Positions 1 to 48,667 of a stretch of DNA of 64,000 bases are shown here, piece by piece. Both the position numbers and the translations under genes were made by a program. Every line of letters starts with the position of its first letter. The first letter of the stretch is position 1. Under the pieces are notes generated by a model. The model worked only from the letters and a program-made list of their open reading frames with translations. It did not search any database and had not been told where the DNA came from. The stretch covers positions 41,230,001-41,294,000 of the forward strand of contig CM060732.1 in NCBI GenBank assembly GCA_030704615.1, given 5' to 3'. The DNA is from Takakia lepidozioides (Eukaryota; Plantae; Bryophyta).

Positions 1-1938
1 TGCTAATCTGAACACTGCAGCTGGTCTTATCCCCGGCGTCGCAATCATGGTTGCCGAGAACAATGGGGCTTGACACACAGAGGTGGCTGCCCCCAATAAC
101 ACACCGGCTGCACTAGCCTTGGTAGCAGGTGTCAGTGCTACACGTGTAGCTCTCCCCAATGGCATAGTAACCTCCGCCTCGGTAACAGTCGGGCGAGAAC
201 TAGGTGCCATGGATGGCTTCGACACTGTCTCCGCCAATGTGAATGACTGAGGAAGCCTCGCCTGACGGCTTGCCTCCCCACGTTGTGGATCCAATTCCAC
301 CTCTGCACCTCGTGGCTCAGGAACTTGTGCTGCTCCTCGAGTCACGGCTGCAGCAGACTCCACCTGCACTAGTGGTAGTGCTGCTCCGCACATGAATTCC
401 ATGTCTCCCATATCTCCTCCCTCAGGAGCAGGAGGTGGACCATCCCGCCTGGGAGCCGGTACCACCTGAGCTGTAGCCATGGCAGCGAGCCTCTGCTCTA
501 GCTGCTGAAGCCGGTTGGCCATGTCTTGGTCAACACCCTGACCTCCGCGTCCTTGGCCATGTTGAGCTTGCCCTTGGCCTACACCTCGTGCCCGACCACC
601 TTGTCCTCTCTGGGCTGGTCCACCTCGCCCCCGGCCACCATTTTTCCCTTGGAACTGGCCTGGGCGCAACTCAGGGTGCAAGTCATAACACTGGGCATCT
701 CCATGCCCATACTTGCCACAATGCCCACACTGCAACTGTGCAGGCTGTGCTTGTGCCGGCCTTCTGCCACTCTCTGGGCAATCTCTCTTGACATGGGGTC
801 CTCCACATGTCCAACATATCACCCCTGGTTGTTGTTGGCCTGCAAAAGATGCCACGGGCCTTTGCACCTGAGGTCCCATGTAAGCTCCATGGAACTTGGG
901 TTGGGCAACCTTGCCCCCCTGACCACGTTGGGCAGTCCCTTGTACCTGTTGGCTGGCAGCTGCACCTCGTGCAGGCATGTCCTTGCCAAATCCAATGGTA
1001 ACAACTCGCTCCTCCACCATGTTGAGCTCAATCCGCTCAGCCAGTAGAAACACATCCGCTAATGTGGGTTGGGCCGCTTGTAACAGGGTTGCATCCCGCA
1101 CCCTTCTCTTGAGCTCCTTGTCCAAAATTCCATACTAGAACTGGACTGCCTGAGCTTCAGTAACCCCTTGGGTCACACTTATCAAGCGCCTCATACGAGT
1201 GTAGGCCTCTCGCAAGCTCTCACTGGATTTGCGCTGGAAGTCTTGCAAACTTCGCAGCTTCTCTGTCCGTACACCTTGGTAGTTCCTCCGCAAGTTCTTC
1301 CACTACTAGTTCTTCCAGTTGAATCTAGGCACATGTGTTGTAATTGTGGCAGGAGGAGTAGTAGCACCTTTTGAACTGGTACCACCTGCAGAAGTGTCGG
1401 CACTACTTGTTCCACTACTAGTGCTTGTAGTTGGAGATGTTTGTGTAGCTGCTGGTGTCACCGCTGCCCTTGTGCCTCTAGTGATTGAGACATAGTTAGG
1501 TGACCAATACTCTCGCCACTCCTCAATCTCCACCGCATGTCCCCGCCTAAATTCATGGTAATCATCCATGGGCGGCCCCTCAAGGTGCTGGAATAGCCCC
1601 TTCCACGCCATAAAGGGCGTAAACAGTTGTGGATTGCGCATTTGCTGCAAATCACACCAACTGTCAAACTCTTGTATAAAGTCATCAAGCTCGATGGTGT
1701 TCACAGCTCCAGAGTACCTACGTGGCCCCTTGGTAGCTCCATACATCTCCTCCATCGTGTCCCACAACAATGACACGGTAATGACTTGCACCCTCGGCGA
1801 GAATCCTCCTGACTCCAAGTCTGAACCTTCCTCAGAAGACACTGAAGGTGAAAGTGGCCTAAACCGCACACCTTGTCTTGTGTACCCACTAGTATCGCTG
1901 GTGCTTGTACCGGCACTCCCCTCAGCAGCTGGTGGCAC
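1..1938 (-). pseudogene. gag: Retrotransposon Gag (capsid plus two zinc knuckles), runs off the window start
   Basis: One minus frame from 1938 to 1: RRYSGAVNTIELDDFIQEFDSW, capsid motif LRSLQDFQRKSSESLREAYTRMRRLI, knuckles CWTCGGPHVKRDC (778-816) and CGHCGKYGHGDAQC (688-729), then an RG-rich tract. In-frame TAG stops at 1303-1308 (two) and 1135-1137. Confidence 0.85.
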
Positions 1939-2859
1939 CTCCGTGATGAAAACTCACAACCCAACCGGTTGTCAACCTGTCTCTAATCCCCACTTTCTAC
2001 AAGGTAACCGGGTAAAGAACTTGTTGCAGCTACTGGTTCAAGCAGGAATAAATAGGTTTCTAATGTAGATCTGTACCTGCACCTGCATCCACCGCAAACA
2101 CTCCTATGGTCTGCTGGTCATCAACCCAGCCTCACCATAGAAGAAACACTAGTGGTCTTGCTGGTCATCACTCCAGCCTCACCACCGACAACATACTCTA
2201 GGATTGGCCGGTGATCAAATCCGGACCAACCTCCTATGAAAACAAGCGCCCACACAAAGCTAATATGGCGCACAGTCAAGCATGCAGGTGTGGAGGGGAT
2301 CCAAATACAAGAAAATCAAGACAGCAACTCCCCCACACCAAAAACACTCCACAGTGTCGCTCCTGCAAGGACACCCCAGCCCAAACCCGGACTGACTCTT
2401 GCCTCCACCTACGGAAAGGTTTTGGCCTACAGAGAGGGTGAAAGACTATGGAGAAGAGAAACTAAAGCAATTCCTAACCCCAGAATGCTCTCATCCCACC
2501 ACTCTCCCTCCTGTCTCTATCCACTCGCTTGTATGGCCATGGCAAGTATCCTTCAATATCCCTCAATCAATCCTTCAAGAGCTCTTCAACAAGGCAATGC
2601 CCATGTAGAGGATGTGCCACCTCCAGCAGAGCAGGATGACATGCATGGTGCGGCGGAGTTGCCTACCATGGTTGCTCACACTCCATTATGGGGTACGAGC
2701 AAGGATTTGCAGCAGGCTGTTGATGGACGGGTACAACAAGCCTGGGTAGAGGCCTTCGTACCGTCAGGAGAAGAGGAGAGTGCGGTGATTGCACCAGGAC
2801 CACCTCAGTTGTCGCCATTGGACACCACACCTCTTGTGTGGCAATGCCCGGATGAAGGC

Positions 2860-3810
2860 ATATGTCTTCTGGACTTGTTTGGCGGGATCAGCACTGGATT
2901 GGCTGCAGTACTACAGGCAGGTATACGAGTTCGACGTTACCTGTATGTGGAGAGGGATGAGACTGCACGACGCGTCTCATTGCGCCATGTTGCTCAGTTG
3001 GTACAGCAGTACCCTGATTTGTTGCTAGTGTCTGCAGTTCGTGGTTACCAACAAGCCTTGCCAGCCGACATTTTGTTGCTAGGGGCGCAGGATTTGGAGC
3101 GGGTTGGCTCCATTGATCTGGTAGTGGCAGGTTAGCCCTGCCAAGGGCATTCATCAGCCGAGCATGGCAATGGATTGCGAGACTCGAGGACGGGTCTGTT
3201 TTGGGAGATGATGCGGATTTTGCGCCACTTGCAGCTTCATCAAGCTGTATCTCCAGCATACATCTTGGAGAATGTGCCATTGATGGGTGATTCTCGGGCC
3301 AGGGTGATGGCTAGTGTGCATCAAGTCCGGTCGTGGCTTGGGTCAGCAGTGTTGCTGGATGCAGCTGCAGTGGGGTCATGGGCTCATCGTCTACGGCTAT
3401 GGTGGACTAACTTGATGTCACCCGCACTGCTCAAGCATGCATTTGATGGGGTGCAGCGGCCAGCACACCTCACAGTGGATAGCATTTTGGACACAGGGAG
3501 GCAGTCTCAACGTGTGAGACACGATGACCGTTCGCCTTTGGCAGTGGTCAACAGGGTGGGTCAACCACAAGCAGCATTACCTACACTGCTCAGCTTCCCA
3601 GGATCCCATGCTTTTTCAGGATGGTGGACCTGGCCTCTTGTGGGATAGCCAGTTGCAACAATTAGTGGAGCCCAATGCTGACGAGCGCGAGCGGGCGATG
3701 GGTTTTACCACAGGTACCACGGCGGTGTCATCTCTTTCTGAGGCATCACGTCGTCAGGTGTTGGGGCAAACAATGGATCTCAATTGCTTGACCTGGATTA
3801 TCAGCTTGGC
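2860..3810 (+). pseudogene. DNMT3-like C5-cytosine DNA methyltransferase domain of the Pol polyprotein
   Basis: Motif I LDLFGGI (FGG 2878-2886); motif II YVERD (2944-2958); motif IV VAG*PCQG (stop TAG 3133-3135, PC 3136-3141); motif VI ILENV (ENV 3268-3276); motif VIII LLDAAAVGSWAHRLRLWWTNL (cf. DNMT3 IDAKEVSAAHRARYFWGNL); motif IX ERERAMGF (3683-3706); motif X RRQVLGQ (3749-3769). One frameshift in the T-run near 3612-3616. Confidence 0.9.
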
Positions 3811-4270
3811 TATGGCTGAGCAGCGCAGAGTACGGAGTACACTTCCCTTCATGGTCTCCCTGCCTACCGAGACGGTACAGGCAGCGAGTGGGGGCGAGCA
3901 GGTGAGGACCACGAGGTGTAGGCCGCATCCATGGCACACGTGGGAGGTGCTCGAGGTTCAGAAGGAGTTGGCAGCCAAGGCGGCGGTGATGGATCAGGTT
4001 GGGGATTTTTCTCGGATTGAGGAGGTCCTCAAGGATGGGATGATGGGGCAGGATGAGACATTGTCACTGACAGAGGAGGCAGTGGTCACTGCTCAAGAGG
4101 TTGCAGCATAGCAACCACGGGACGCGTCTTCTACCTCTAAGCCTGCTGGACTCAAGGTTGCAGTCACGGAGGACAACTGGGAACCTGATGTTGGACCTAT
4201 AGTCACCGAAGGAGAGAGACGACGTATACGGCGGTTCTTGAGGGCTTACAGGAACTGATTTGCCTTCAGT

Positions 4271-5000
4271 TTGAAAGACTTAGGAGCACTGAAGGGTCAA
4301 GAGATTCGCATTGAATTGGCTACTGACACGCCAATCTTTCGGAGACCCTATAGATATAGTGACATGGAGAGGTCCTTGATTCAGATGAGAACTCGGGACC
4401 TTTGGGAGGCTGGTTTGGTGGAGCTATCTTGGGGAGAGTATGCTTTAGCCACAGTGATGCCAGCCAAGAAGAATGTCTTTGACAATTGGACAGAGAGACG
4501 TATGTGCGGTGATTACCGGCCTGTAAATCGTCAGACCAAGTCAGATAGGTATGCCATGCCAACACCAGAGGAGATTTTTGATGCCATTGGGCATGCCAAG
4601 GTCTTTAGCACGTTGGATTTACGACCCGGATATCACCAGTTGCCGATCAAGGAGGCGGATAAGCAAAAGACGGCATTCTGGGGGGTCAATGAGCACGGGA
4701 AGGATTGCCTATACCAGTGGCGGTTCTTACAATTGGGCTTAAGAACGCTCCGGCAGAGTTTCAGAGAGTCATGGACAGGATTCTAGCAGGGGTGGAGTTT
4801 GCTCGGTGCTACATAAATGACATCATCATCTTTAGTGCTACGGTGGAAGAGCATGAGAGACACCTTCAGGGGGTATTTGAGCGCTTGAGGGTGCACGGAT
4901 TGAAGTTACATCCGGGAAAGTGCAAGTTTTTCCACAACCAGATTGAGTATCTGGGTCACATGATATATCCTGGAGGATTGGGGGTACAGCAGACTAAGGT
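4271..5000 (+). pseudogene. pol: Reverse transcriptase domain (gypsy type)
   Basis: PIFRRPYRYS, RMCGDYRPVN, DRYAMPTPEEIFD, FSTLDLRPGYHQL, GLKNAPAEFQRVMD, YIND (4810-4821; YxDD mutated), KLHPGKCKF, EYLGH. Frameshift near 4730. Confidence 0.95.
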
Positions 5001-5239
5001 AGAGTCCATTGCACAGGTTCCACGCCCCACGGATGTGAGCCGAGTTCGAGCTTTCATGGGGTTAGCAAACTATTATAGACGGTTTGTTAAGGGATTTAGT
5101 GCCATTGCAAAGGCTCTAACCAAGCTGACCAAGGTGGACCAGGAGTGACAGTGGGAAGATGAGCAAGAACAATTTTTTCATTGCTCAAGGCGAGGCTGAC
5201 CTCGGCGCCCATCTTGAGATGACCTATCAGGGGGCGTTA

Positions 5240-5600
5240 TTTTCAATTGCATACAGATTGGAGCATGCTGGGGCTTGGAGCGGTGCTCACACAGGTGGAT
5301 GATGAGGGAAGAGAGTTCGTAGTGGCTTATGCTAGCCGCTCGAACAACGTTGCAGAGTCTAAGTATAGCTCATATGAGGGAGAATGCTTAGCTGCAGTGT
5401 GGGCCGTGGCACACTTCAGGTGCTATCTATACGGCAATCTCTTCACCCTTGTCACGAATCACCAACCACTCAAGTGGTTGATGGAGTCAGACAAGCTTAC
5501 GGGGAAGCTTGCACGGTGGGCACTCATCCTTCAAGAGTATGACTTTCAGGTGGTGCATCGACCGGGTTTGGTCAATCGCAATGCAGATGGGTTGAGTCGC
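5240..5600 (+). pseudogene. pol: RNase H domain (gypsy type)
   Basis: HTDWSMLGLGAVL, VAYASRS, YSSYEGECLAAVWAVAHFRCYLYG, FTLVTNHQPLKWL, KLARWALILQEYDF, ADGLSR. Confidence 0.95.
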
Positions 5601-5989
5601 AATCCATGCACGAGCCAGCAGGATGACACTGGAGCTCGGTGGCATGGTGAGACGGACGAGGAGATGGTGCCCGGATGACATGCATTTGCATTTCTGTGTA
5701 TCTTGGCAGCGGAAGGCAAGGTTGGACCTGCAACAGGGATGACTGTAGATCAAGTGTCTGAGGACCCTGAGGCCAACAATGAGCAAGGTAGCGCCAAAGA
5801 TATACATGAGGATTCAGTTGTGTTGGACTACCTCCGCACTGGAGACACTGCAGCCACTGTGACTGCCAAGGAGAGGGATCGGATCCTACAACGAGCCAAG
5901 AGGTTCAAGTGGGAGGGGGCACACCTGCTCCGAGTGTGGGAGGATGGTTGAGTGAGGATTGTGCCTCACCCAACACAGCGGGCATGGTT

Positions 5990-7030
5990 AGTGCGGCATG
6001 CCCATGAGGAGTTGGGGCATTTTGGGGTGCGACGCACTCATAGTTTACTGTAGGGGCAGTATTGGTGGCATGATATGCACACAGAGGTGCAACAATTTGT
6101 GGCTAGGTGCATGGTGTGTGACAGGGTGCGTGCTTCATTCAACGCCCCTACTCCACAATTGCACCCTCTTCCGATCATGGGATTGGGCTACAGGTGGAGT
6201 CTTGACTTCGCAGGGCCGTTGCCACTGACCATGCGCCACAACAAGTACGTGTTGGTGATGGTAGAGCACTTCTCCAAGTGGATTGAATTGGTTCCATTGC
6301 CTGATAAGGCTAGTGAGGGAGCTGCGTATGCATTCTTGGATTGTGTGCTTAGCCGATTCGGTGCTCCAGCTGAGGTACTCACGGACCAAGGGAGAGAGTT
6401 CTTGGGGGAGTTTCAGGCTTTGTGTGACAAGGCCTTGATAGACCACCGCACCACTTCTCGTGATCATCCTGAGGCCGATGGCTTGGTCAGAGAGAGTTGT
6501 TCAGACAGTAAAGAGGGGTTTGCGCAAGTATGCTTGCAGAAGGGACACATAGGAGATTGAGACCTTCAGTTACCCTGGTTAGCCATGGGCTACAGGTTCA
6601 GCAAGCAAGCATCACTTGCCTCCTTCTCACCATACTTTCTTCTCTTTGGCCGAGAGCCAGATTTGCCTACATCCATTCGCAGAGAAGCTGCTACAGTTCT
6701 TAACCTTGACGATCCGGACGTGTGGGCACGTGCATGTGAGCAGCGTGCAGAGTTGTTCAAGAAAGTCATGCCCATGGCTTTCGAGAACCTTGCCATTGCA
6801 CAACATCATGATACATTGAGGTATGCTACCATACGTGGTGGGCGCTATCGTCCTGGGGTTTGGAAATTCAACCCTGGTGACTATGTCTATCTGCAGCAGA
6901 CTGCTCCTACGACATTGGATGTGACTGCAGGACGTGTTATTTTGAGGGTTCGAGAGATTTTGCCCTCAGGCGTCTTGGTCTTGGAGGGTCGGGATGGCAT
7001 AACTTGGAAGGACCATGTGCGTAATTGTGT
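5990..7030 (+). pseudogene. pol: Integrase (HHCC zinc finger, DDE core, C-terminal domain)
   Basis: AHEELGHFG...CMVC, WSLDFAGPLP, VEHFSKWIE, FGAPAEVLTDQGREF, TTSRDHPEADGL, SPYFLLFGREP, FNPGDYVYL. Several stops and a frameshift. Confidence 0.95.
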
Positions 7031-7100
7031 GCCATGTCACCTTCCGAATGTCGATGGCAGGATTGACCCAAACCTGGCAGTGGTATCTGCAAGTTTGAAA

Positions 7101-7244
7101 TGCATGTTGTGTGGGTCTGCTAGAGGGACAGCCACCATGCTGGTGTGTGATCGATGCTCTAGAGGTTGGCATATGGGATGCTTGACTCCACCTCTTGAGA
7201 TGGTTTCTGATGGGGATTGGTTATGTCCGTATTGCATTGGATAG
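7101..7244 (+). other. PHD finger (C4HC3) fused to the integrase C-terminus
   Basis: CMLC...MLVCDRCSRGWHMGCLTPPLEMVSDGDWLCPYC then stop, in the same ORF (6585-7244) as the integrase C-terminal domain. Confidence 0.9.
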
Positions 7245-7500
7245 TGGGAGTGGATACAACCATGGAAGGCTAACAAGAAATGCAAGGCCAAGCTACTAGG
7301 AGACCAACACACGAGATCCTGACTCAAGTTCACAGATTGCAAGACGGCGACTAACGATGGGGTTGCTCTTGTACCCGGCCTCTTGGTCTATAGAGTTTGA
7401 GTACAATAGGGATAGTGATAGAGGACTTAGTATGGCTGTGGCTATTACATCTTGTAGCTATCTGGAGTTAGAGGGACCTAACCACCAGCTAGGGGGGCGA

Positions 7501-8097
7501 TTGTGGTATAGCTTTCTAGGATTGTGTGCTTAGATTGTGTGGTGGACAGCGATGTATGTTGTGGCACGATGCTTAGGTGCACGACAGCTGTCATGGTTTT
7601 AGTCATGGTTATCTAGAATTACCTACTTCTAGTTAAGTAGGACATTTTAGATATTTATATTTATATTTTGTGTGTTGGAACTTCATTTGGTCTCACATGC
7701 CAAGTGAGGTATCGAGCCTCACTTGAGACATGGAAATATGTTTTCCCCTTGTGAGTGTTGAGGAGGCTCATCTTCTTGTAGTTGAGCCTCCATGAGCTTC
7801 TCTCACCTCTATAGCTCTAGGTATTGAGAGGGAGTGTGTTGAGGGCTTTGTAGGGTGGATTCCTTTAGCAAAGGTGCCATTGGCTTGACTTAGTTTATGT
7901 GATAGAGTGGATTTCACTTGGAAGGACTAGGGCTTGTTCTTCATGTGATTGCTTCATGCTTTGAGAGCTTTCATTGTCTTCTACTTCTCTCATTTCTCAT
8001 CTCTTATCATTGTGGTATAGCTTTCTAGGATTGTGAGCTTAGATTGTGTGGTGGATAGCGATGTATGTTGTGGCACGATGCTTAGGTGCACGACAGC
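7501..8097 (+). repeat. 88-bp direct repeat (7501-7588 and 8010-8097) flanking the putative LTR
   Basis: ttgtggtatagctttctaggattgtg...gcacgatgcttaggtgcacgacagc occurs twice with about 2 mismatches. Confidence 0.95.
7589..8009 (+). repeat. Putative LTR (421 bp, TGTCA...TATCA)
   Basis: TG...CA termini, downstream of the polypurine tract, followed after 3 nt by TGGTATAGC (PBS-like). No second copy in the window to confirm it. Confidence 0.6.
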
Positions 8098-15410: not shown

Positions 15411-15702
15411 CACGTTCCATGTCACTCTCAATAGAGGGGTGGGGAAGATTCGACATGCCGGAAACTGTTGTTCCAAGACCCCTTGGTAAACTCCTGAGAC
15501 TGCACCACAGGGAGCCCTGTATTGGGAAGGAGAGAACCACGATCTCAAAACAGTGAACGACGACGGCAGGATTGGCCTGGGAGCTGAATAAAAGGCTGGC
15601 ATTGAGGGGGGCAATCTACAAGCTTTGAGCGAAAGAGAGTAGCTTTTACAAATAAAGATCTCCAATAAGAAGAGACTGGGGCATTCCGAAAATCAGGTAC
15701 GT

Positions 15703-18294
15703 ATGAGTTGGAGGAATCTGGGGTCAAAGAAAGGTGTCCTCCGATGCAGCCTCGACTCAGACTTTTGCAGAATGGCAGGTTTGAATCAGGCCCAGTTGTT
15801 AGCATCAGATACATGCACGGTGACCACTGCATTTGAAGGAGGACCAAGATATGGAGTCGTCAAGAATTCTGCTAGCACTTATGTGGACGTAAGGACACTT
15901 TGTAAGGCAGGACAACTGAAAGAGGCTCTAAACATTTTGAACCAAGGATGCATTTCGGAGTACTCGAACGCTTATGTCTGTCTTCTGCAGCAATGCATCA
16001 AAATCAAAGGCCTAGTCGAGGGAAAGCAGGTGCATGCTCACATCATCCGAAGTGGGTTCAAACCAAACATTTTTGTACTCAGCACCCTTGTCAACATGTA
16101 TGCCAAGTGTGGGAGTGTGGTGCAGGCACGCCAAGTGTTTGACAAAATGCCTGAACGAGACATGGTTACGTGGAACACAATGATAGGAGGATATGCCAAA
16201 CATGGATGTGGTAGGGAGGCTTTCGAGATCTATGAGCAAATGCAACAGGAGGGAGTGATACCTAACAAGGTCACATTCGTCTGTGTTCTTAACGCGTGTG
16301 CCACCCTAGCAGCACTAGAAAAAGGCAAAGAGGTTCATGCTGAGATCATCAAAGCTGGAATTGGCTCATATATTAAGTTGGAGAATACCCTTGTTGACAT
16401 GTATGCCAAATGCGGGAGCATAAAGGATGCGCAGCAAGTGTTTGAGAAAATGGTGCAACGAGATGTGGTCTCATGGAATGTCATGATTGCAGGATATGTT
16501 CAGCATGGATGTGGTTGGCAGGCTTTGGAGAGCTACGAGCAAATGATGCAAGAAGGGGTTGTGCCCGACAAGGTGACATTTATTTGCGTTCTCAAGGCGT
16601 GTGCTAGCCTAGGAGCCCTGGAAAAGGGCAAAGAGGTCCATGCTGATATGATGAAAGCTGGAATTGTGTCATCTACTAATTTGGAGAACACCCTTATTGA
16701 CATGTATGCCAAATGTGGGAGCATGAAGTTTGCTTGTCAAGTGTTTGACCATATGGCACACCGAGATGTGGTCTCATGGAACACCATGATTGCAGGATAT
16801 GCTCAGCATGGGCGTGGTAGGGAGTCTCTAGAGTTCTATGAGCAAATGATCCGAGGAGGGTTGCTGCCCGACAAGGTCACATTCACTTGCGTTCTTAATG
16901 CATGTGCCAGTCTGGCAGCGCTGGAAAAGGGCAAGGAGGTCCATTCTGAAATCATCAAGGCTGGAATTGAGTCATTTATTAATTTGGAGAATACCCTTGT
17001 GGACATGTATGCTAAGTGTGGGAGCATGAAGGATGCACGTCGAGTGTTTGACAACATGGATCAGCGGAATGTGGTCTCATGGAATGCTATGATCGCAGGA
17101 TATGCTCAGCAGGGTTGTGGTAGGGAGGCTTTGGAGATTTATGAACAAATGATATTTGAACGGTTGATGCCCAACAACGTTACATTCACTTGTGTTCTCA
17201 GTGCATGTGCCAGCCTGGCAGCCCTGGAAAAGGGCTTAAAGATCCATGTTGACATCGCCAAAACCGGAGTCCCGCTGAATATCATTGTGGAGACTGCCCT
17301 CGTAGACATGTATGCCAAGTGCGGGAGCATGACAAATGCTCGCCGAGTTTTTGACAATATGGCTCATCGAAATGTGGTCTCATGGAGTGCCATGATAGCA
17401 GGATATGGTCAGCATGGGTCTGGTAGGGAGGCCCTTCAGCTATTTGAACAAATGCAAAAGGAAGGCTTGAAGCCTAATGGTATCACCTTTATATGTGTTC
17501 TCGCTGCATGTAACCATGTGGGCCTACTGGATGAGGGCCGTCACTACTTTTTTTCCATGAATCAAGATCATGGCCTCACTCCTACAATGGAGCATTTTGG
17601 CTGCATGGTGGACCTTTTTGGCCGTGCAGGGCAATTGGAGGAGGCAGAGGACTTCATCAACATAATGCCAATTGAACCAGGTGCCGGGGTGTGGGGGGCC
17701 TTGCTTGGTGCTTGTAGAATTTATGGGGATGTAGATAGAGCAGAACGTGCAGCACATTGCTTTCTCAAGTGGGATCCTCAGCATGCTCCGACTTACATGC
17801 TGCTGTCGACCATTTATGCTGCGGCTGGCAGGTTGGACGATAAAGCAAAGGTGACAAAACTAATGGAGGACAGAGGTGTCAGAAAGGAGCAAGAGAAGTG
17901 CTGGACTGAGGTCAACAACCAGGTACATACATTCAATGAAGGAGAAGCATTACACCCTCAAATGGAGAAAATTCATGCCGAGCTGATTAGATTGTCTGAG
18001 AAGATGAAGGAGACAGCGTATATGGCTGAAATGTACTTTGTACTGCATGATGCGGTGGAGAGGAAAGAATTTTCCCTTTGCCAACACAATCAGATGTTGG
18101 CCATTGCTTTTGGGCTCATCAGCACCTCCCTTGGGACGCCTCTCCGTGTTTTCAAAAACCTTTGGGTGTGTGGGGACTGCCACACCACCACCAAGTTCAT
18201 CTCAAAGATTGTGAGACGATCAGTAATTGTACGGGATGGCAACCGCCTTCACCACTTCCAAGATGGAGTTTGTTCTTGTGGGGATTACTGGTGA
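15703..18294 (+). CDS. PLS-class pentatricopeptide repeat protein with E1/E2 and a degenerate DYW domain (organellar RNA-editing factor family)
   Basis: 863-aa uninterrupted ORF: about 17 L/S/P repeats, E1/E2, C-terminal CGDCH...HHFQDGVCSCGDYW. The true start may be ATG 15772 if GT15697-AG15770 is an intron. Confidence 0.95.
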   Translation: MSWRNLGSKKGVLRCSLDSDFCRMAGLNQAQLLASDTCTVTTAFEGGPRYGVVKNSASTYVDVRTLCKAGQLKEALNILNQGCISEYSNAYVCLLQQCIKIKGLVEGKQVHAHIIRSGFKPNIFVLSTLVNMYAKCGSVVQARQVFDKMPERDMVTWNTMIGGYAKHGCGREAFEIYEQMQQEGVIPNKVTFVCVLNACATLAALEKGKEVHAEIIKAGIGSYIKLENTLVDMYAKCGSIKDAQQVFEKMVQRDVVSWNVMIAGYVQHGCGWQALESYEQMMQEGVVPDKVTFICVLKACASLGALEKGKEVHADMMKAGIVSSTNLENTLIDMYAKCGSMKFACQVFDHMAHRDVVSWNTMIAGYAQHGRGRESLEFYEQMIRGGLLPDKVTFTCVLNACASLAALEKGKEVHSEIIKAGIESFINLENTLVDMYAKCGSMKDARRVFDNMDQRNVVSWNAMIAGYAQQGCGREALEIYEQMIFERLMPNNVTFTCVLSACASLAALEKGLKIHVDIAKTGVPLNIIVETALVDMYAKCGSMTNARRVFDNMAHRNVVSWSAMIAGYGQHGSGREALQLFEQMQKEGLKPNGITFICVLAACNHVGLLDEGRHYFFSMNQDHGLTPTMEHFGCMVDLFGRAGQLEEAEDFINIMPIEPGAGVWGALLGACRIYGDVDRAERAAHCFLKWDPQHAPTYMLLSTIYAAAGRLDDKAKVTKLMEDRGVRKEQEKCWTEVNNQVHTFNEGEALHPQMEKIHAELIRLSEKMKETAYMAEMYFVLHDAVERKEFSLCQHNQMLAIAFGLISTSLGTPLRVFKNLWVCGDCHTTTKFISKIVRRSVIVRDGNRLHHFQDGVCSCGDYW

Positions 18295-33680: not shown

Positions 33681-36644
33681 GTGAGGGGGGGCTGGAGTGT
33701 GGTGCAGATCAATCCCATAGGACTAGATTTCAGGCACAAGGGCACGGAAGAGGCACTGTTGATTGAAGGCTACAAGAAACCTACATGGGTCACTGGTCAA
33801 CTGAAAGTTGGAGCAGCCCGGTTGTTTGAATCAGATACCTCCAGACAGAGAGAGGGAGGTTACAAGAAGTCTTCTGGCTCTTGGGATGTCAGGACAGTAT
33901 GTAAAATGCGAGTGTGGGTGTGGAACAATATCATAGGACCAGATTTCAGGCATAAGGATACTGAGGAGGCACTGTGGATTGAAAGCTACAAGATACCTGC
34001 ATGGATAGATGGTCAGCTGGAAGGAGGAGCAGCACAAGTTTTCCAATCAGACACCTCCAAACGAAGAGAGGGGATTCACAAGAAGTCTTTTTGCACGCGG
34101 GATGTTAGGACACTATGTAATACAGGACAACTGAAAAAGGCTCTGCACATTTTGAACCAAGGTGGCATTCTGGCAGACTCCATCACATATATCTCCCTCT
34201 TGCAGGAGTGCACCAAGATGAAAAGCCTAGCAGAGGGAAAGCAGGTGCATGCCCACATTATCCTAAGTGGATTCACGCCAAACTTATCTCTTCTCAACAT
34301 CCTTGTCAACATGTACGTCAAGTGTGGGAGTGTGTTTTATGCACGCCAAGTGTTTGACATTATCCCTGAACGAGATGTGGTTACGTGGACTATAATGATG
34401 GCTGGCTATGCAAAGGATGGGTATGGTAGAGAGGCTTTCAAAATGTATCAACAAATGAGACAGGAACGGGTGATGCCCAACAATGTCACGTTCATCTGTG
34501 TTCTCAAGGCATGTGCAAGCCTAGGTGCCCTGGAAAAGGGCAAAGAGGTCCATGCTGACATCATCAGAGCTGGAATTGCTCCAGATGTTGCTCTGGAGAC
34601 TTCCCTTGCTAATATGTACGCCAAGTGTGGGAGCTTAAGGGATGCACGTAAAGTCTTTGACAATATGGCTGAACGAAATGTAGTCTCATGGAATGCAATG
34701 ATTGCAGGATATGCTCAGCATGGGTATGGTAGGGAAGCTTTTGAGATCTACAACATGATGTTACAAGAAGGAGTGACACTTAACAGTGCCACTTTCATTT
34801 GCATTCTCAAGGCATGTGCCAGCCTTGAAAAAGGAAAAGAGGTCCATGCTGATATCGGCAAAGCTGGAATTGGGCCAGATACCATTCTAGAGACTGCTCT
34901 TGCTGCCATGTACTTGAAATGTGGGAGCGTGAGGGATGCACGTGAAGTGTTTGACAAAATGTGTCAACGAAATGTGGTCTCTTGGAATGCTATGATCACA
35001 GGATATGCTCAGAATGGGTGTGGTGGGGAGGCTATCGAGATTTATGAGCAAATGAAACGAGAAGGAGTGATGCCGGACAAGGTTTCATTCATTTGTGTTC
35101 TCAATGTGTGTGCTAGTCTGGCAGCCCTGGAAAATGGCAAAGAGGTCCATGCCGACATCGTCAAAGCTGCAACTGCCCAAGATATCATTCTGGAGACTGC
35201 TCTTGTCAACATGTATGCCAAATGTGGGAGCATGGTGAATGCCCGGGAAGTGTTCAACAATATGTGTCAACAGGATGTGGTGTCATGGAGTGCACTGGTT
35301 GCAGGATATGCTCAGCAAGGGTGTGGTAGGGAGGCTTTGGACATCTATGAGCAAATGGTACAGGAGGGGATGATGCCCAACAAGGTCACATTCATTTCAG
35401 TTGTCAACGCATGTGCCAGTCTAGGAGACCTGGAAAAGGGCAAAGTGGTCCATGCTGACATTGTCAAAGCTGGAATTGCTCATGACATCATTCTGGAGAC
35501 TGCCCTTGTCGACATGTATGCGAAATGTGGTAATATGATGGACGCAGGACAAGTGTTTAACAACATGACTGAACGAAATGTGGTCTCTTGGAATGCCATG
35601 ATAGGAGGATATGCAGAGCATGGGTGTGGTAGGGAGGCTTTTGGGTTTTATGAGCAAATGTTGCGCGAAGGAGTGATGCCAGATAAGGTCACATTCCTCT
35701 GTGTTCTCAATGCAAGTGCAAGCCTAGGAGTCGTGGAAAAGGGCAAAGAGGTCCATGCTGACATCATGAAAGCTGGCATTACGCAAGATATCATTCTGGA
35801 GACTGCCCTTGCTGTTATGTATGCCAAATGTGGGAGTGTAAAGGATGCACGTCAAGTGTTCAACAATATGGCTGAACGAAATGTGGTCTCATGGAATGCA
35901 ATGATTGCAGGATATACTCGGCATGGGAGTAGTAGTGAGGCTTTCGAGATCTATGAGCAAATGGTACGGGAAGGAGTGACACCAAACAAGGTCACGTTCA
36001 TCTGTGTTCTCAATGCGTGTGCCAGCATGGGAGCCTTGGAAAAGGGTGAAGAGGTTCATGCTGACATCATCAAAGCTGGCATTGTGCCAGACATAGTTAT
36101 TGAGAATACCCTTATTAACATGTATGCCAAATGTGGGAGCGTAAAACATGCACGTCAAGTGTTTGATGGTATGGTTCAACGAAATGTGGTCTCATGGACG
36201 GCAATGATTGCTGGGTATGGTGAGAATGGTTGTGGTAGGGTCTCTGTCCAGCTGTTTGAACAAATGCAACAGGAAGGCCTCACGCCAAATGGTATCACCT
36301 TTACATGTCTTCTCTCTGCATGTAGCCATGTTGGGCTGGTCGACGAAGGCTGTCACTACTTTGATTCCATGACTCGAGATCTTGGCCTCAGTCCTACAGT
36401 GGAGCATTTTGGCTGCATAGTCGACCTGCTTGGGCGTGCACAGCAGTTTGTTGAGGCAGAGGACTTCATTAACAAAATGCCAATCCAACCGGATGCTTCC
36501 GTGTTGGGGGCTTTGCTTGGTGCATGCAGAACTCATGGCAATGTGGAGGTAGCTGAACGTGTAGCAAAATGCCTTTTCAAGCGGGATCCACAGGACGCCG
36601 CAACTTATGTATTGCTATCGGACGTGTATGCGGCAGCTGGCTGA
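33681..36644 (+). CDS. PLS-class PPR protein, E-type (stop inside E2; DYW absent)
   Basis: 987-aa ORF (GTG start in the track, real start uncertain) with about 23 L/S/P repeats, E1 and partial E2. After the TGA the frame continues WDDQAKVRKMMDRYVKKEPGHC. Confidence 0.85.
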   Translation: MRGGWSVVQINPIGLDFRHKGTEEALLIEGYKKPTWVTGQLKVGAARLFESDTSRQREGGYKKSSGSWDVRTVCKMRVWVWNNIIGPDFRHKDTEEALWIESYKIPAWIDGQLEGGAAQVFQSDTSKRREGIHKKSFCTRDVRTLCNTGQLKKALHILNQGGILADSITYISLLQECTKMKSLAEGKQVHAHIILSGFTPNLSLLNILVNMYVKCGSVFYARQVFDIIPERDVVTWTIMMAGYAKDGYGREAFKMYQQMRQERVMPNNVTFICVLKACASLGALEKGKEVHADIIRAGIAPDVALETSLANMYAKCGSLRDARKVFDNMAERNVVSWNAMIAGYAQHGYGREAFEIYNMMLQEGVTLNSATFICILKACASLEKGKEVHADIGKAGIGPDTILETALAAMYLKCGSVRDAREVFDKMCQRNVVSWNAMITGYAQNGCGGEAIEIYEQMKREGVMPDKVSFICVLNVCASLAALENGKEVHADIVKAATAQDIILETALVNMYAKCGSMVNAREVFNNMCQQDVVSWSALVAGYAQQGCGREALDIYEQMVQEGMMPNKVTFISVVNACASLGDLEKGKVVHADIVKAGIAHDIILETALVDMYAKCGNMMDAGQVFNNMTERNVVSWNAMIGGYAEHGCGREAFGFYEQMLREGVMPDKVTFLCVLNASASLGVVEKGKEVHADIMKAGITQDIILETALAVMYAKCGSVKDARQVFNNMAERNVVSWNAMIAGYTRHGSSSEAFEIYEQMVREGVTPNKVTFICVLNACASMGALEKGEEVHADIIKAGIVPDIVIENTLINMYAKCGSVKHARQVFDGMVQRNVVSWTAMIAGYGENGCGRVSVQLFEQMQQEGLTPNGITFTCLLSACSHVGLVDEGCHYFDSMTRDLGLSPTVEHFGCIVDLLGRAQQFVEAEDFINKMPIQPDASVLGALLGACRTHGNVEVAERVAKCLFKRDPQDAATYVLLSDVYAAAG

Positions 36645-39190: not shown

Positions 39191-40871
39191 CCTGGTAGGT
39201 AGTTTGCCAGTAAATTATGGGTTGTCATTATCTGTGATTTTTTGTTCTGGAGGCAGAGATAGCTCAAGGAGGCAGGGAGTGAATGTGCGTGCCAGATCCA
39301 TCGTAGAGGACCAGGTTTCAAGCACAAGCATATAAATGAGGCACAATGGATTGCCGGCTATAAGAAACCTCCGTGGGTGGATGACAAGCTGGAGGCACCT
39401 AGGGGTAAGTATCCTTTTTGGGATTATGAGAGATAAAGATAAAGATAAAGTTTCTTATAAAGAGAGAGAGAGAGAGAGAAGCATGTAGAAAATAGAATAT
39501 AGGGGGTGAAAACTGGGAGACTTCTTGCTACAATGTTCCTACGTTTGATCACATGACATGCATGCATTGGTCCGTTTCCAGGATCAGGATGTACTTATTT
39601 TTTCCTTCTGCAAGCATATTTGGCCTTCTTTCTTCCTCTATCAAATGGAGAAGGTGATATCTGTGAATATTTGCCCCTTTTTGTTCCCCCCCTCTTCTTT
39701 TGAGGTTTCCATGTGCATATCGCTGACAGAGCATGTCTCCCACTTTTCACGGGCTTTAGTTGTCTAGTCCATCTGAAGTTTCTGATAAGTTTACGCTAGG
39801 GAGTTAAAGAATAATATCAAACGAAACAAAATACAGAAGTGGAGAAGCTCTTGAATGACTGTTTTCGAAACCCCAAACAATGGTGGGACAATCGAGGCAG
39901 TAAGGTGAAAGCCTGCTATGTTACAGTGTGCAACCGACACGATCAACGGAAAAACTTCCTTGCAAATTAGTATGATGTCGTCCATGGTCTCTCCCTTGCC
40001 TCTCTCATCGGGGTTGAGTTGTTCATCAATTTCTCTGGTTGTGCTTTATTGTCTACAGTGAGTGTTGACATCTCCTATGGACACAAAAAAATTGTGTCTT
40101 TCCTCAACACTGTGGCAGTGCAACCACATTTGCACGTGCCACATCTCTTGCAAGTGAGAGGACTAGTGGAGAGGTCTAGGTCACTTCATGGTTTCTTACT
40201 CATTGTTTTCGGAGGTTCTTTTCCTGTACGGAGTCTTGGCAGCTCGTCACTAAAAGATGGTTGGATTGTCTTGTCCTCTGTGATGGATTCTCTGAGATAC
40301 AAGGCTTGTCAAATACGTGGGGCGGGGGGGGGGGGGGGGTTCTATCCTGTCAATTCTGTGGATGGAGGGAGAGCTGAGTGAAGGGGGGCTGGAGTGTGGT
40401 GCAGATCAATCCCATAGGACTAGATTTCAGGCACAAGGGTACGGAAGAGGCACTGTTGATTGAAGGCTACAAGAAACCTACATGGGTCAATGGTCAACTG
40501 AAAGTAGGAGCAGCACAGTTGTTTGAATCAGATGCCTCCAGACGAAGAGAGGGAGGTTACAAGAAGTCTTCTGGCTCTTGGGATGCGAGGACAGTATGTA
40601 AAATGAGAGTGTGGGTGTAGAACAATACAAGAGGACCAGATTTCAGGCATAAGGGTACTGAGGAGGCACTGTGGATTGAAAGCTACAAGAAACTTGCATG
40701 GATAGATGGTCAGTTGGAAGGAGGAGTAGCACAATTTTTCAATCAGACACCTCCAAACGAAGAGAGGGGATTCACAAGAAGTCCTTTGGCACGCGGGATG
40801 TTAGGACACTACGTAATACAGGACAACTGAAAAAGGCTCTGCACATTTTGAACCAAGGTGGCATTCTGGCA
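39191..40871 (+). pseudogene. Segmental duplicate of the upstream region and N-terminus of the 33.7-kb PPR gene (source 32384-34175)
   Basis: Collinear high identity from cctggtaggtagtttgccag to aaccaaggtggcattctggca. TGG>TAG stop at 40618-40620, a frameshift, and truncation before the first PPR repeat. Confidence 0.95.
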
Positions 40872-40998: not shown

Positions 40999-42406
40999 TT
41001 AAGAAAAGAGCTGCACCACATCAACAGCCATGGCATCTGAAAGACCAGCTACATCAGGTGTGGACAAGCCCCCGACGTCATGCTCCACTGGATTCTTCTG
41101 TTCTTCCTCTAATGTGCTTTGTAACTCATCCACCTGCCAACCCAAACACCCACATGCTTTAACTAGTACCCCTGTGACAAATTGGACAATACAATTAATT
41201 CCTCATTTGCCAGTACACATGTGAGTATTAGAATTAAAGCACCAACACTTTGGGGTCTTAAAACACAGGCAGCTATCAGATCGCTTAGTTAATGGCAAAA
41301 ACTCTGAGCTACAAAGAACAATATTACGTTGCCAGCTCTTCATAACAACCAACGACCAGATCAACAGCTACCACTTACAGCAACTTTATGTTAATGTCTG
41401 AGCCATGGACCCAGAAGCATGAAATACGGTTATCTTGCAACACAGAAAATAAACAATGCAGACATGGATACCAGATTTCTTCCAATCCGAACGACCATTG
41501 GGCAGACTTTGCTTGCTTAGATAGTCATAACGGGTTCCAACGGTTTCCGCTTGATTATACACTAGTGAAAGATTACAACCGACAACCAACCAATAGAACC
41601 GTTCAGTAGCATGCACCCACTCTGACCAAGTATGTGCTACTCACCACATGCAAGAGAAGCCCGAATTGCTTCTTTCGAAGCTCAAGAGTGCGAGATGCCG
41701 CAAAATTCTCGGCTTCCATCACTACGAGTTCTTTTTCTAGCTCATCCAGCTGTCTCCGCGTCTCAGATCGTGGGGACTGAGCAGCTATCAATCTCCTGAT
41801 GGCTTCACATTCTTCCTTGTGTTGCCGCTCAATCTTAGCCTCCTCCAGTTGCACCTTCAAATCCTCTACGTCAATTTGTGCCTAGACCAACCCTCCGATT
41901 CATCATCCACAGATTGCTACCACAAGTATGGTTCCACACCACAATATGTGTGAAGACTTTACTCAAAAAAATTGCAGTAAAAGAAATGTAATGCGGGAAC
42001 ATGCGGTTACGACCCAGACCTGTGCAATTTGCTTGTTTAGTTCCACGTGCAACCCTTTGAAGCTCTCCTGCTCTCGTCTGTTGGCATCGATGGCTGCTTT
42101 GGTTTTGAGGAGTGGCAGTTCAAACGTGGCCAGTTCTTGCAGGAACGACTTGTAAAGCTTTTCGCAGTCGCTGTAGTTGTTAGCTTCCTTCTCTATCTCA
42201 GTTGCAAAAGCAATAAACTTTTTCAGGAGCTTCTTCAGAGGGGGCTCCCCTCTGGTAGTGGTGGTGCGCGTCAGAAGCCGCTGTCTGATGACCGCATCGT
42301 CCTCCGAGGGACTAATGGCGTAGTGGGCTGCCATCGCTCCGCCTGCCCCCACACCCTCTTCTTCAGCCCTGCCTTTCCTCGTTTTCACACTACGCCCTAT
42401 TTTCAT
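40999..42406 (-). CDS. THO7: THO complex subunit 7 (3 exons: 42406-42020, 41881-41645, 41133-40999; ~252 aa)
   Basis: [57 protein letters not shown]|VDELQ. Two GT-AG phase-0 introns give an uninterrupted frame. Confidence 0.93.
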
Positions 42407-45919: not shown

Positions 45920-48667
45920 CTAATCAACTTGAACATCATCATCCGGAGCTTCTTCATCCTCATCAAGCTGCAAGTCTTCTTGGTCATCGGAGTCATCGGA
46001 GTCATCGTCATAAATGGCCCAGTCCTCAAAAGGCACCTCCGAATCATCCTTCACCTCGTTGTCAATGGTTGTGTCTTCGTCTCTTTCTCCAACATCCGTA
46101 TTTTCTAGAGCTTCATCATATAGGGTCCATGATGCATTGTCCGAGGCGTCATCATCCTCTTCTACCCCCTCTACCCAACTTCCATCATCAGCATCATTAT
46201 GACCAGTCTCTCCGTCCACCGCAATTGCCTCACCCCATGGAGATCTGACACCATGATAAATACGTCTTTCTCTTGGATGAGCATGCACAATCACCTTCCA
46301 ATTCTCCCCTCTTGTTTTGTCATCGGAGAAGAAAACTTGCTCCATGTCTGAAGGCCGTGAAAAAAACTCATCGGAGGGACGATGAGTAGGGTTGAGCCTA
46401 TCTGCATTGACGCACATGAAACCACAATCATCTTGCACTAGTGTTGCGGAGGGCTCCACAAGATGTGGCTGCTTCCCTTGAAGAGAAGAGGCCGGTACCT
46501 TGTATACTAAAGTTGGAGTATGCTCTCAAGCTCTCCAATGTACTCAAGTTTGCTCATAGCAGGTCGTGTATCTCCCTTGCCCCACACAGAGTCTTGCCAA
46601 TATGTGGCATACAAGCCAGAATCAAAGGTTGTTATGCGCTTCATGTCAAGAGCACGAATGCGGAAATGACGACCGTGAACCCAAACCCCCGTGTATGAGG
46701 TCGCGAATTGAGAGGGGCCCCTTGCAATGTCTTGCACCAAATCTGAAACCACCTCTCTTTGAGCAACGGCGTCATAAACTGAAGTCCGAAGCCACTGTTG
46801 GAATGAACTTAGAGGCTGTAATTCCATGGGAAAAATTTGTGAATGAACATTCCGGCGGCCCGCTCCTCGTCGTGGGCGTCTAGTAACTGGCCTTGGATGG
46901 TTCCGCCTCCATGCAAGCGTCTCCTCATCTCGTTGCTGAACAAGATAATTGTATCTTGCCTCCCACTCATGTATGGATGGGGTGTTCTTCAGTATGAAGT
47001 CATGCGTTTGCTCAATCACCAAGGTCGGCAATTTTACCCTCTTCGATTGTTTGGGCAAAACGATGTCCTTGGTTCGTGCATCCTCATCTTCCTTCCACAT
47101 CCGAGGGGCTTCCTCATCCACCCTTGCCATGTACTCCGTGCAATAGAACATAGCTTATTGCAACGTATACCCCTCCGCCATGCTACCCTCCGGGTGCGCC
47201 ATTTGTCTTACAAATCCTTTCAAAGTCTTCATATAACGCTCAAGGAAGTACATCCACCGAGAATGAACGGGGCCGGCAATCAAAGCCTCTTCCACTAAGT
47301 GCACTACCAAGTGCACTTGGATGTCAAAGAAGGAGGGAGGAAGGTGCATCTCCAACATACACATTACCTCCGCCGCCTCCTTCTTCATGCGTGGAAAATC
47401 TGCTTCTTCCAACTCTTTGGAGCAAATCCACCGGAACAGGCCTCCCTCAGGAGTCAATGTCCCACGTACTGCAATGGGCAAGATGTCTTGCAATATATTG
47501 TGGTAGTCATGAGACTTCAAACCATGGACCCCGTCTTCTTCGCTGAACTTCGTACGTAGGGATTGGGATGACCCATAACCAATTGGTGTTCGGACAACAC
47601 TTATGGTGGCTATCACTTTATTGTATTCCTCCTTTGTCCATTGCCAAGGTGCGTGCCTATACTTCCACCATACAACACCATTTGGGTCCACACCATTTTG
47701 TTTGGCCCATAGATGGCGCATGCGACCCTGCTCCTCAAGCTCATTTCTAACACCGAGAGAATCTCCTTTTGCAGCCACTCCCTTCTTTGCTGGCGTGCCA
47801 TGAAGAACCCGAAAAAAAGACGAGCGGACATTCTTCTCAATATGCATGGGATCTAGAAGATGGCGAATCTTCAGGTCCTACACAAAGACTTACACAAAAA
47901 ATTTACGTGAAAGTGACAATGCAACGCATACCAAATGTGCAATATCACATGCATGCATAGGGATATTGACGGTGTTTTTGTTGAATATGTACCGCCCAAT
48001 ATGGCAACTCGTAGAAGATTGAAAGTCATTTCATGTCAGGCACGTTCACTTCACCGTCCGTGCCCGCATGGGCCTCCTTCCATCGGTCCTCCCAAAACTG
48101 CCCGGACGGTGTCATAGGGGGGGGGACGTACTTCCTCTTTGCCATCAAACAAGTGTTTCTCTCTTCTTCTCCATCGATGGCTCATAGGAAGAAATTTGCG
48201 GTAATTGGGATACATCATTTTGTGAAGATGGCGGGAGCTATGTGCATCAAGATCATCACCACAATGCAAGCATGCATAGTACCCTTTGGTGCTTAGCCCC
48301 GAGCAAACAGTTAGTCTTGTACTACACATCCCGCCACATTAGCCAAAACAAAAAGTTGTCATATGCATGGCCCATAATGCCATCTACGCCACTACGGTGC
48401 ACAAGATTGTCGCCGCTACTTCAATCAATCCCAATCCTCATCGATATTATCCGGCATTGACAAGTGAATGTACGCGGGTTGTTCATGGGGAACATAATAT
48501 ACCTGGATAATCATGCATTGTACAAAATAAGATGCCTCTCATCTGAAAAGATTGTCCAGCCACAGGGTCAAGTGAAGCATCCAATGCCGGGACCCCCCTC
48601 CATAGCTCCTTAAGTTCATCAACAAGAGGTTGCAAATACGTGTCCATGTTTGCCACTTGTTTTTTCC
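45920..48667 (-). pseudogene. CACTA transposase (TnpD-like), C-terminal part (Transposase_21 end, DUF4218, DUF4216-like)
   Basis: KKQVANMDTYLQPLVDELKELWEG, SGLSTKGYYACLHC, MHIEKNV, GLKSHDYH, LPPSFFDIQVHLVVHL, GPVHSRWMYFLERYMKTLK, PEGSMAEGY, EQVFFSDD..WKVIV. Confidence 0.93.

Follow-up and report, generated by a model that had tools for sequence, protein, structure and literature searches.

A Ty3/gypsy family of mosses and liverworts with a DNMT3-type methyltransferase domain, a conserved stop codon and split terminal repeats

The window, a stretch of 64,000 nucleotides from Takakia lepidozioides (assembly GCA_030704615.1, contig CM060732.1, positions 41,230,001 to 41,294,000, forward strand), holds the 3' part of a retrotransposon in which a DNMT3-type C5 cytosine methyltransferase (MTase) lies upstream of reverse transcriptase (RT), RNase H (RH), integrase (IN) and a PHD finger. 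On comparison with its relatives, the copy almost certainly represents a land-plant Ty3/gypsy family, present in mosses and liverworts, that carries its own MTase. The kind is known from Klebsormidium; apparently new are the land-plant family, a placement of the MTase defined by a stop codon, and the proposed route of integration. The reading that we favour, at a probability of roughly 0.65, is a split-repeat gypsy element with a first open reading frame (ORF1) for Gag, protease (PR) and DNMT3, a second (ORF2) translated by readthrough, a packaged MTase that would methylate the complementary DNA (cDNA), and integration of end-joined cDNA. The following features were assigned in and around the window copy (LTR, long terminal repeat):

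1..2590, minus strand: family gag with its leader, oriented against the MTase-bearing part (53% identical to Marchantia ORF1 at E 4e-175)
2591..2853, plus strand: remnant of the protease-MTase linker (BLASTP against the relatives' linker, E 4e-22)
2854..3815, plus strand: DNMT3-type C5 cytosine methyltransferase domain, motifs I-X unrearranged (Pfam PF00145, identity to relatives, fold of an intact relative)
4109..4117, plus strand: conserved in-frame TAG where ORF1 ends, followed by CAA CCA, a readthrough context of CARYYA type (relatives have a stop at the homologous position)
4259..5148, plus strand: reverse transcriptase, damaged (Pfam RVT_1; stop at 4256, frame change near 4732, YIND)
5223..5600, plus strand: RNase H (Pfam RT_RNaseH, E 5e-34)
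5940..7080, plus strand: damaged DDE integrase, including an H2C2 zinc finger and the C-terminal part (Pfam Integrase_H2C2 and rve; tblastn to relatives)
7098..7241, plus strand: PHD finger, last part of ORF2 (Pfam PHD, E 2e-10)
7489..7500, plus strand: polypurine tract (PPT) directly 5' of B1 (same motif 5' of B1 in relatives)
7502..7586, plus strand: repeat B1, putative start of U3 (83 of 85 bases identical to B2)
7580..7595, no strand assigned: near-palindromic joint CACGACA-GC-TGTCATG, candidate integrase site (its halves are the element's right and left ends)
7589..8009, plus strand: repeat A2, putative rest of U3, R and U5 (A1/A2 pairs in loci L022, L062, L069 and L079)
8011..8095, plus strand: repeat B2, right end of the element, followed by host DNA (repeat comparison with B1)

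A first-pass annotation of the window had described ordered C5-MTase motifs followed by RT, RNase H, integrase and a PHD finger in a dead copy, and these points were borne out. In translation, MTase motifs I (2866-2886), II (2944-2958), IV (3112-3147), VI (3262-3276), VIII (3382-3414), IX (3683-3706) and X (3749-3769) follow one another between 2866 and 3769, and all 10 motif residues checked are retained. Pfam, run on a translation with X placed at stops, returned DNA_methylase, RT, RNase H, integrase and PHD in that order, the repaired MTase domain matching at E 5e-11 (43 bits, cut-off 22), RVT_1 in two pieces (7e-17 and 4e-4), and Integrase_H2C2 and rve at 2e-14 each; the translated PHD motif spans 7101-7235. 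The copy is dead: it contains nine internal stops (3133, 4109, 4256, 5146, 5220, 5676, 5949, 6051 and 6558, of which 4109 is the conserved one), five frame changes (near 3612, 4732, 5178, 6487 and 6531) and a damaged RT motif, YIND, at 4810-4821. Two of these lesions, the stop at 3133 inside motif IV and the frame change near 3612, disrupt the MTase.

Homology to relatives begins near 2580-2591, the copy's own A1, gag and protease being absent from the window. Upstream, head to head with the MTase part, a gag of the same family runs away from it on the minus strand from 1953 to 1; two zinc knuckles were recognised in it by eye, a Pfam scan of 1-2590 gave no match, and its leader aligns only weakly with the A repeat and, when checked, showed no TATA box, TGTC start, self-priming pair or intact A start. 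This minus-strand segment is either an inversion or a second copy. In a sequencing run with another organism label and from another study (X8), one contig of 5009 bases covers 2591-7529 at about 96% identity (173 other letters) and continues upstream of 2591 unlike the window, and contigs of the run branch at 7588 and 8009. The run does not cover 1-2590, which favours neither an inversion nor a second copy.

The family beyond Takakia was collected with the MTase as query. A protein search gave 44 proteins among 7995 scored candidates, the named matches being Marchantia (up to 71% identity over the full query), Calypogeia (71%) and Sphagnum (56%), and the matched relatives read Gag, zinc knuckles, protease, MTase. 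In a metagenome scan, 215 of 508 matches were confirmed and 80 loci kept; in 17 of these the order is complete (Gag-PR-DNMT-RT-RH-IN-PHD), and most others are truncated by contig ends or deletions. An earlier metagenome scan with a single-sequence query confirmed none of 239 matches, and a scan of IMG/VR none of four pattern matches. The annotation's proposal of a land-plant LTR family with its own MTase thus stands, relatives being found in Marchantia, Calypogeia and Sphagnum besides the full-order loci. Ty3 Gag-Pol is the top PDB profile match, and the family has the Ty3/gypsy order Gag-PR-RT-RH-IN with a DDE integrase. At least five full-length ORF1 gene models of Marchantia polymorpha keep the protease and catalytic motifs. 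Two full-length ORF1 copies, P0380 and P0381 (Mp_Vg00370 and Mp_Vg00540), lie on the Marchantia male sex chromosome and are annotated as hypothetical proteins; intact MTase domains are encoded by Mp_4g09160, Mp_5g06330 and Mp_Vg00370. Two family proteins, P0026 and P0285, are labelled cyanobacterial in NCBI (Obscuribacterales and Synechococcales), probably because metagenome bins took up DNA of plants or algae.

With an intact ORF2 as query, Riccia, Klebsormidium, Closterium and an ORF from a Coleochaete transcript were also recovered; no vascular plant is named among the 120 matches listed. DNMT precedes RT in the Klebsormidium protein KFL_009030040 and in several Closterium proteins. As KFL_009030040 reads PR-DNMT-RT-RH-IN and a sister Klebsormidium protein has a PHD finger after IN, the novelty first claimed for the architecture was overstated. 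In eight proteins (P0033, P0034, P0038, P0040, P0094, P0104, P0107 and P0129), which form one branch of the DNMT tree, the DNMT3-type domain sits between RNase H and integrase, which suggests either that the domain shifted its position inside the polyprotein or that it was acquired a second time. A further gypsy polyprotein, P0140, has a PHD finger before integrase and, between protease and RT, an adenine methyltransferase of the Dam type.

Trees of RT and MTase (LG+G4, no mixture model, deeper forks poorly settled) both group the window with Marchantia, Calypogeia and Sphagnum-type copies (SH-aLRT 99; 100/100), with locus L070 as the next branch. KFL_009030040 falls in the same large RT clade as the window family, the forks that place it relative to the bryophyte clade being weakly supported in both trees. 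A comparison of the MTase with host DNMT3 had also been envisaged by the annotation; the tree, built from MTases other than host DNMT3, gave the grouping with bryophyte copies. In both trees, Marchantia and Sphagnum-type elements are closer to each other than to the window element, against host kinship, a mismatch that either old paralogous lineages or horizontal transfer would produce.

The MTase of the window is about 70% identical to those of Marchantia and Calypogeia. For the intact domain of locus L074, the first PDB matches are DNMT3C, DNMT3A and DNMT3B; a profile search with the MTase gave DNMT3A at 1e-24, M.HaeIII at 4e-9 and Arabidopsis-type DRM2 at 1e-5. An AlphaFold model of the L074 domain (mean confidence, pLDDT, 92) retrieved in Foldseek only DNMT3A/B/C entries among the matches listed (best template-modelling score 0.72), and judged from this model the family MTase likely folds like DNMT3A/B. 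The catalytic Cys is kept in 79, the Glu in 78 and the Asn in all 81 of 81 copies, and the S-adenosylmethionine-binding motif is near-invariant. Motif VIII arginines are often changed to H, C, Q or stop, a pattern expected of CpG deamination. Ratios of nonsynonymous to synonymous change (dN/dS) between subfamilies are 0.125, 0.123, 0.104, 0.197, 0.175 and 0.098, with saturation in several window pairs; this range of 0.10-0.20, a comparison that the annotation had called for, indicates purifying selection on the MTase between subfamilies. We consider the enzyme probably active.

A host streptophyte DNMT3 gene has the MTase followed by DUF3444 and is multi-exon (PMC6453930). The family does not match this structure: its DNMT3-type domain is intronless and unrearranged, with catalytic residues kept, and DUF3444, the mark of host DNMT3, is absent among the 23 and 14 proteins scanned.

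The position of the MTase relative to the polymerase is set by a stop codon. In the intact locus L074, an ORF1 of 1369 amino acids (Gag-PR-DNMT) is followed, in frame, by TAG and an ORF2 of 1047 amino acids (RT-RH-IN-PHD). The stop homologous to window position 4109 is present in 53 of the 55 loci that hold both the MTase end and the RT start (39 TAG, 14 TAA, two other). The hexamer 3' of it is CAACCC in 44 loci, TAACCC in three, CAGTTA in two, CAACCA and CAATCA in one each and another sequence in four, so that in 52 of the 55 the stop is followed by CAR-YY(A/C) or by what looks like a version of it decayed from C to T. Lineages only 46-67% alike retain the motif with differing synonymous letters, and in the window pol CARYYA accounts for 11 of 4649 hexamers. 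Marchantia ORF1 proteins of 1278-1281 amino acids, with intact protease and PC motifs, end at the homologous stop. CARYYA is described as important for stop-codon readthrough (PMC3441728). In a check for a stem 3' of the stop, single folds gave z-scores of +0.34 to -2.85 (seven sequences), and an alignment of 10 had no consensus pairs.

The annotation had seen the end of the MTase and the start of RT in one frame broken by two point stops. There are indeed exactly two stops in the frame 3602-4732, at 4109 and 4256, of which only the latter reads as decay. That the MTase is simply part of Pol, as had been proposed, is not supported: the relatives' sequences indicate that it closes the Gag-PR-DNMT frame, and RT-RH-IN-PHD would, with good confidence, be made by readthrough of the conserved stop. 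Given this stop and its context, the MTase is likely made at the level of Gag, and RT and integrase at a fraction of that.

The second unusual trait of the family is its repeats. The complete relatives L022, L062, L069 and L079 are arranged A1...PPT-B1-A2-B2, of which the window shows B1-A2-B2. Their ends are TGTC...GACA with a 4-bp target-site duplication (TSD) that is exact in eight of 11 insertions (not counting L051, which has an irregular 3' end); a preference for NCGN targets was not seen in the duplications of the insertions examined. At the B1/A2 joint both end motifs meet across two bases, in the same way in L010, L062, L069, L074 and L076, of which L074 and L076 are distant. The 5' A repeat is preceded by B in none of 25 loci, and two like LTRs at both ends, the standard arrangement, were not seen; the layout is A...B-A-B or A...B. 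The A...B copies (L028, L032, L045, L059 and L066) are compatible with cleavage at both sites, with a circle of one LTR, with subsequent recombination or with a collapse in assembly.

In six of 10 loci the sequence that follows A1 is the complement of a stretch some 30 bases 3' of a TATA box in A; the distant L074 has such a complement with an unrelated 16-base sequence, and in a control none of 1059 11-mers matched exactly. The element very likely primes itself from its RNA start, as this complementarity suggests. With a primer site after A and a PPT before B, ordinary reverse transcription predicts LTRs of the form B+A. The joint between A2 and B2 is blunt in L062, in L069/L079 and in the window, keeps the primer site in L048/L049, and holds a PPT remnant and filler in L022. 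From the missing 5' B and these remnants we infer that cDNA ends are joined and then cut at the internal palindrome; integration through end-joined cDNA thus appears probable.

The PHD finger forms the end of ORF2 in many relatives. The annotation had paired it, as a reader, with the MTase as writer; the finger sits on the integrase and not on the MTase, which lends no support to a DNMT3A-like reader-writer unit. A relative's finger is nearest to those of CHD4, PHF12, PHF21A, KDM5A and UHRF1. Fingers of this type read histone H3 unmethylated at K4. Attached to the integrase, it would have insertion targeting as its likelier role. A similar reading has been given for the PHD of a Chlamydomonas gypsy element (PMC9940879).

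From these traits we propose the following life cycle. The particle would contain more MTase than RT. The RNA would start inside A1, about 30 bases 3' of the TATA box, and prime itself on the 11-16 bases following A1; the plus strand would start at the PPT before B1, giving linear cDNA with B+A LTRs. Joining of its ends, as a two-LTR circle or head-to-tail dimer, would create the A2/B2 joint, and the integrase would then cut the internal GACA-GC-TGTC of one LTR and insert the product with a 4-bp duplication as A...B-A-B, while cleavage at both sites, formation of a one-LTR circle or subsequent recombination between B repeats could account for the A...B copies. The PHD finger of the integrase might bind the H3 tail, probably unmethylated at K4, and direct insertion into silent chromatin. 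In the least certain step, methylation would mimic host heterochromatin on the new copy or shield free cDNA; that new cDNA is the target of the MTase we consider an even bet. More tentative still, and rather doubtful, is a wider version: an ancient green-plant lineage of retrotransposons with integrase for which end-joined circles, and not linear cDNA, are the normal substrate and the internal palindrome is cut, with active DNMT3 in each particle methylating cDNA, possibly shielding one of two palindromes and thereby limiting cleavage to the other, and with intact Marchantia ORF1 copies perhaps adding de novo methylation.

Several observations weigh against the proposed cycle. In the same L074 pairs, dN/dS is about 0.045 for RT and about 0.12 for the MTase, a weaker constraint on the latter, and in decayed Sphagnum-type near-copies the MTase ratio is 0.39-1.0. 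The domain of KnitGypsy-Dnmt3, the gypsy element of Klebsormidium nitens, gave no methylation in yeast, a result that its authors call inconclusive (PMC5890265). The 55 loci bearing on the stop are mostly of one subfamily and partly the same insertions across samples, amounting to about six independent lineages; the commonest context, CAACCC, differs from CARYYA at its last base; and in KFL_009030040 and four other proteins the MTase runs into RT without a stop, which is therefore not universal. As the MTase served to collect the 80 loci, members without one would have escaped, and the DNMT tree was built without host DNMT3. The TSD is absent in one of the 11 insertions and carries one mismatch in two, and a clear self-priming match is lacking in four of 10 loci. 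The end-joining model is based on relatives, the window copy lacking A1 and with it its own primer site and TSD, and enzyme activity, readthrough, RNA start and circles are all deduced from sequence.

Four other explanations were weighed. In the first, which we regard as unlikely, the element is the same and the MTase acts on host chromatin or other copies, silencing competitors or damping its own family, instead of on cDNA. Expression at the level of Gag would yield much free enzyme, a self-limiting role is listed as possible by de Mendoza et al. (2018; PMC5890265), and moss DNMT3b methylates CG and CHH in heterochromatin (PMC6453930). The fusion to Gag-PR in every complete locus would, however, put the MTase in the particle, to judge from the biology of LTR elements.

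Secondly, the split ends could arise from template switches at the B1-A2 joint during reverse transcription, a linear A...B-A-B being inserted by its ends with no circle. A model of this sort has been proposed for Ngaro/PAT elements. The repeat layout is the same as in tyrosine-recombinase elements (PMC5890265), and ordinary TG...CA ends with a 4-bp TSD would suit such an insertion; but a primer site right after A1 and a PPT right before B1 predict B+A LTRs, and the primer-site and PPT remnants and the filler seen between A2 and B2 are traces of the kind left by end-joining. We consider this route, too, improbable.

Less credible again is retention of the MTase domain as a non-catalytic binder of DNA or RNA, which would agree with the negative yeast test of the Klebsormidium domain (PMC5890265) and with a dN/dS above that of RT, but which the near-invariant catalytic Cys, Glu and Asn and S-adenosylmethionine-binding motif contradict. 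A single event that set a fragment of host DNMT3 next to a gypsy element, for which only the rearrangement of the window copy at 2590 speaks, can be dismissed: the same layout occurs in dozens of loci and several named genera, DUF3444 is in no scanned protein, and the RT and MTase trees are concordant for the bryophyte clade. The roughly 70% identical MTases in other genera, together with the full-order loci, already refute it.

Why transposons should carry an enzyme that silences them has been a puzzle since 2018, the sole gypsy example being algal and inactive in yeast. With intact ORF1 copies in Marchantia polymorpha, a genetic model, the question of the MTase becomes testable, and the conserved stop makes a concrete prediction, namely enzyme at capsid level. 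LTR circles are commonly regarded as dead ends, a view that would be revised, if true, by a family in which all complete copies resemble a re-opened circle. Split ends would likely conceal the family from LTR finders, and DNMT3s borne by transposable elements could blur counts of DNMT genes in bryophytes.

Elsewhere in the window, two intronless pentatricopeptide repeat (PPR) genes lie at 15643-18294, with E and DYW domains, and at 33681-36644, reaching the E motif; the segment 32721-34175 is duplicated at 39468-40871. The minus strand carries the first coding exon of THO complex subunit 7 (THO7) at 42020-42334, and, at 45920-47877, decayed transposase-like fragments with DUF4218, which we take to be CACTA-like. 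The THO7 exon shares 90% identity with Sphagnum, 85% with Ceratodon, 81% with Marchantia and 76% with Diphasiastrum; by this one gene the host is likely a moss other than Sphagnum.

Among known systems, the cutting of a joint recalls IS3/IS911 copy-out paste-in transposition, where a DDE enzyme acts on a circle joint with the two ends a few bases apart; the likeness is by analogy only, these being bacterial DNA elements. In Tf1 and Tcn1 the primer site is complementary to the RNA start, and SIRE1 and tobacco mosaic virus (TMV) use UAG-CARYYA readthrough; Tf1/Tcn1, SIRE1 and TMV-type systems share self-priming or CARYYA readthrough with the bryophyte family and differ by ordinary paired LTRs and no DNMT. 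Self-priming is named for the Tf1/Tcn1 chromoviruses in PMC6317226.

In a literature search, no land-plant report of the family, its stop, self-priming or joint was found, only de Mendoza et al. (2018) and citing papers (outside its scope were Repbase, Dfam, subscription papers and bioRxiv supplements such as Table 6 of 10.1101/2021.11.30.470311, any of which may list the family, as well as the main figures in the supplement of PMC5890265). The available text of PMC12344493, PMC11244446, PMC12885004, PMC10952607, PMC9516144, PMC6453930 and 10.1101/2021.11.30.470311 likewise holds no description of these four. Gypsy-7a_cRei of Chlamydomonas likewise has a PHD finger in its gypsy polyprotein, for which a role in directing insertion was proposed; it differs in near-ordinary LTRs and in having no DNMT listed in the available text (PMC9940879). 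Phygy and Selgy (Neumann et al., 2019, PMC6317226) are, like the present family, early-land-plant gypsy elements with a 4-bp TSD and no chromodomain; as described there, Phygy has a tRNA-Trp primer, an NCGN target and no extra domain, and Selgy a tRNA-Ala primer, a length of about 5 kb and no extra domain. By these published descriptions of primer, target and domains, the family fits neither.

Split direct repeats also occur in Ngaro/PAT-type tyrosine-recombinase retrotransposons and, together with a DNMT3 cargo, in SymbioDIRS-Dnmt3, which methylates CG in yeast (PMC5890265). Unlike DIRS and Ngaro elements, the bryophyte family has a DDE integrase, a protease and 4-bp TSDs, and no tyrosine recombinase was matched in Pfam scans of the window and relatives.

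The closest counterpart is KnitGypsy-Dnmt3 (de Mendoza et al., 2018, PMC5890265), of which we take KFL_009030040, by its architecture, to be a copy. It was described as an intronless, unrearranged DNMT3 domain in a gypsy polyprotein, with DIRS-like A1...B1-A2-B2 repeats and under purifying selection, and it thus shares its domains, repeat layout, intronless DNMT3 and selection regime with the bryophyte family (dN/dS 0.10-0.20 here); self-priming, TSD and joint structure are without description in the available text. The bryophyte family differs in its occurrence in mosses and liverworts and in an MTase that closes ORF1 before a conserved stop: whereas the DNMT of KnitGypsy-Dnmt3 shares one ORF with RT and RNase H (PMC5890265), that of the bryophyte family is in the same frame as RT but upstream of the stop, and would be joined to it only by readthrough.

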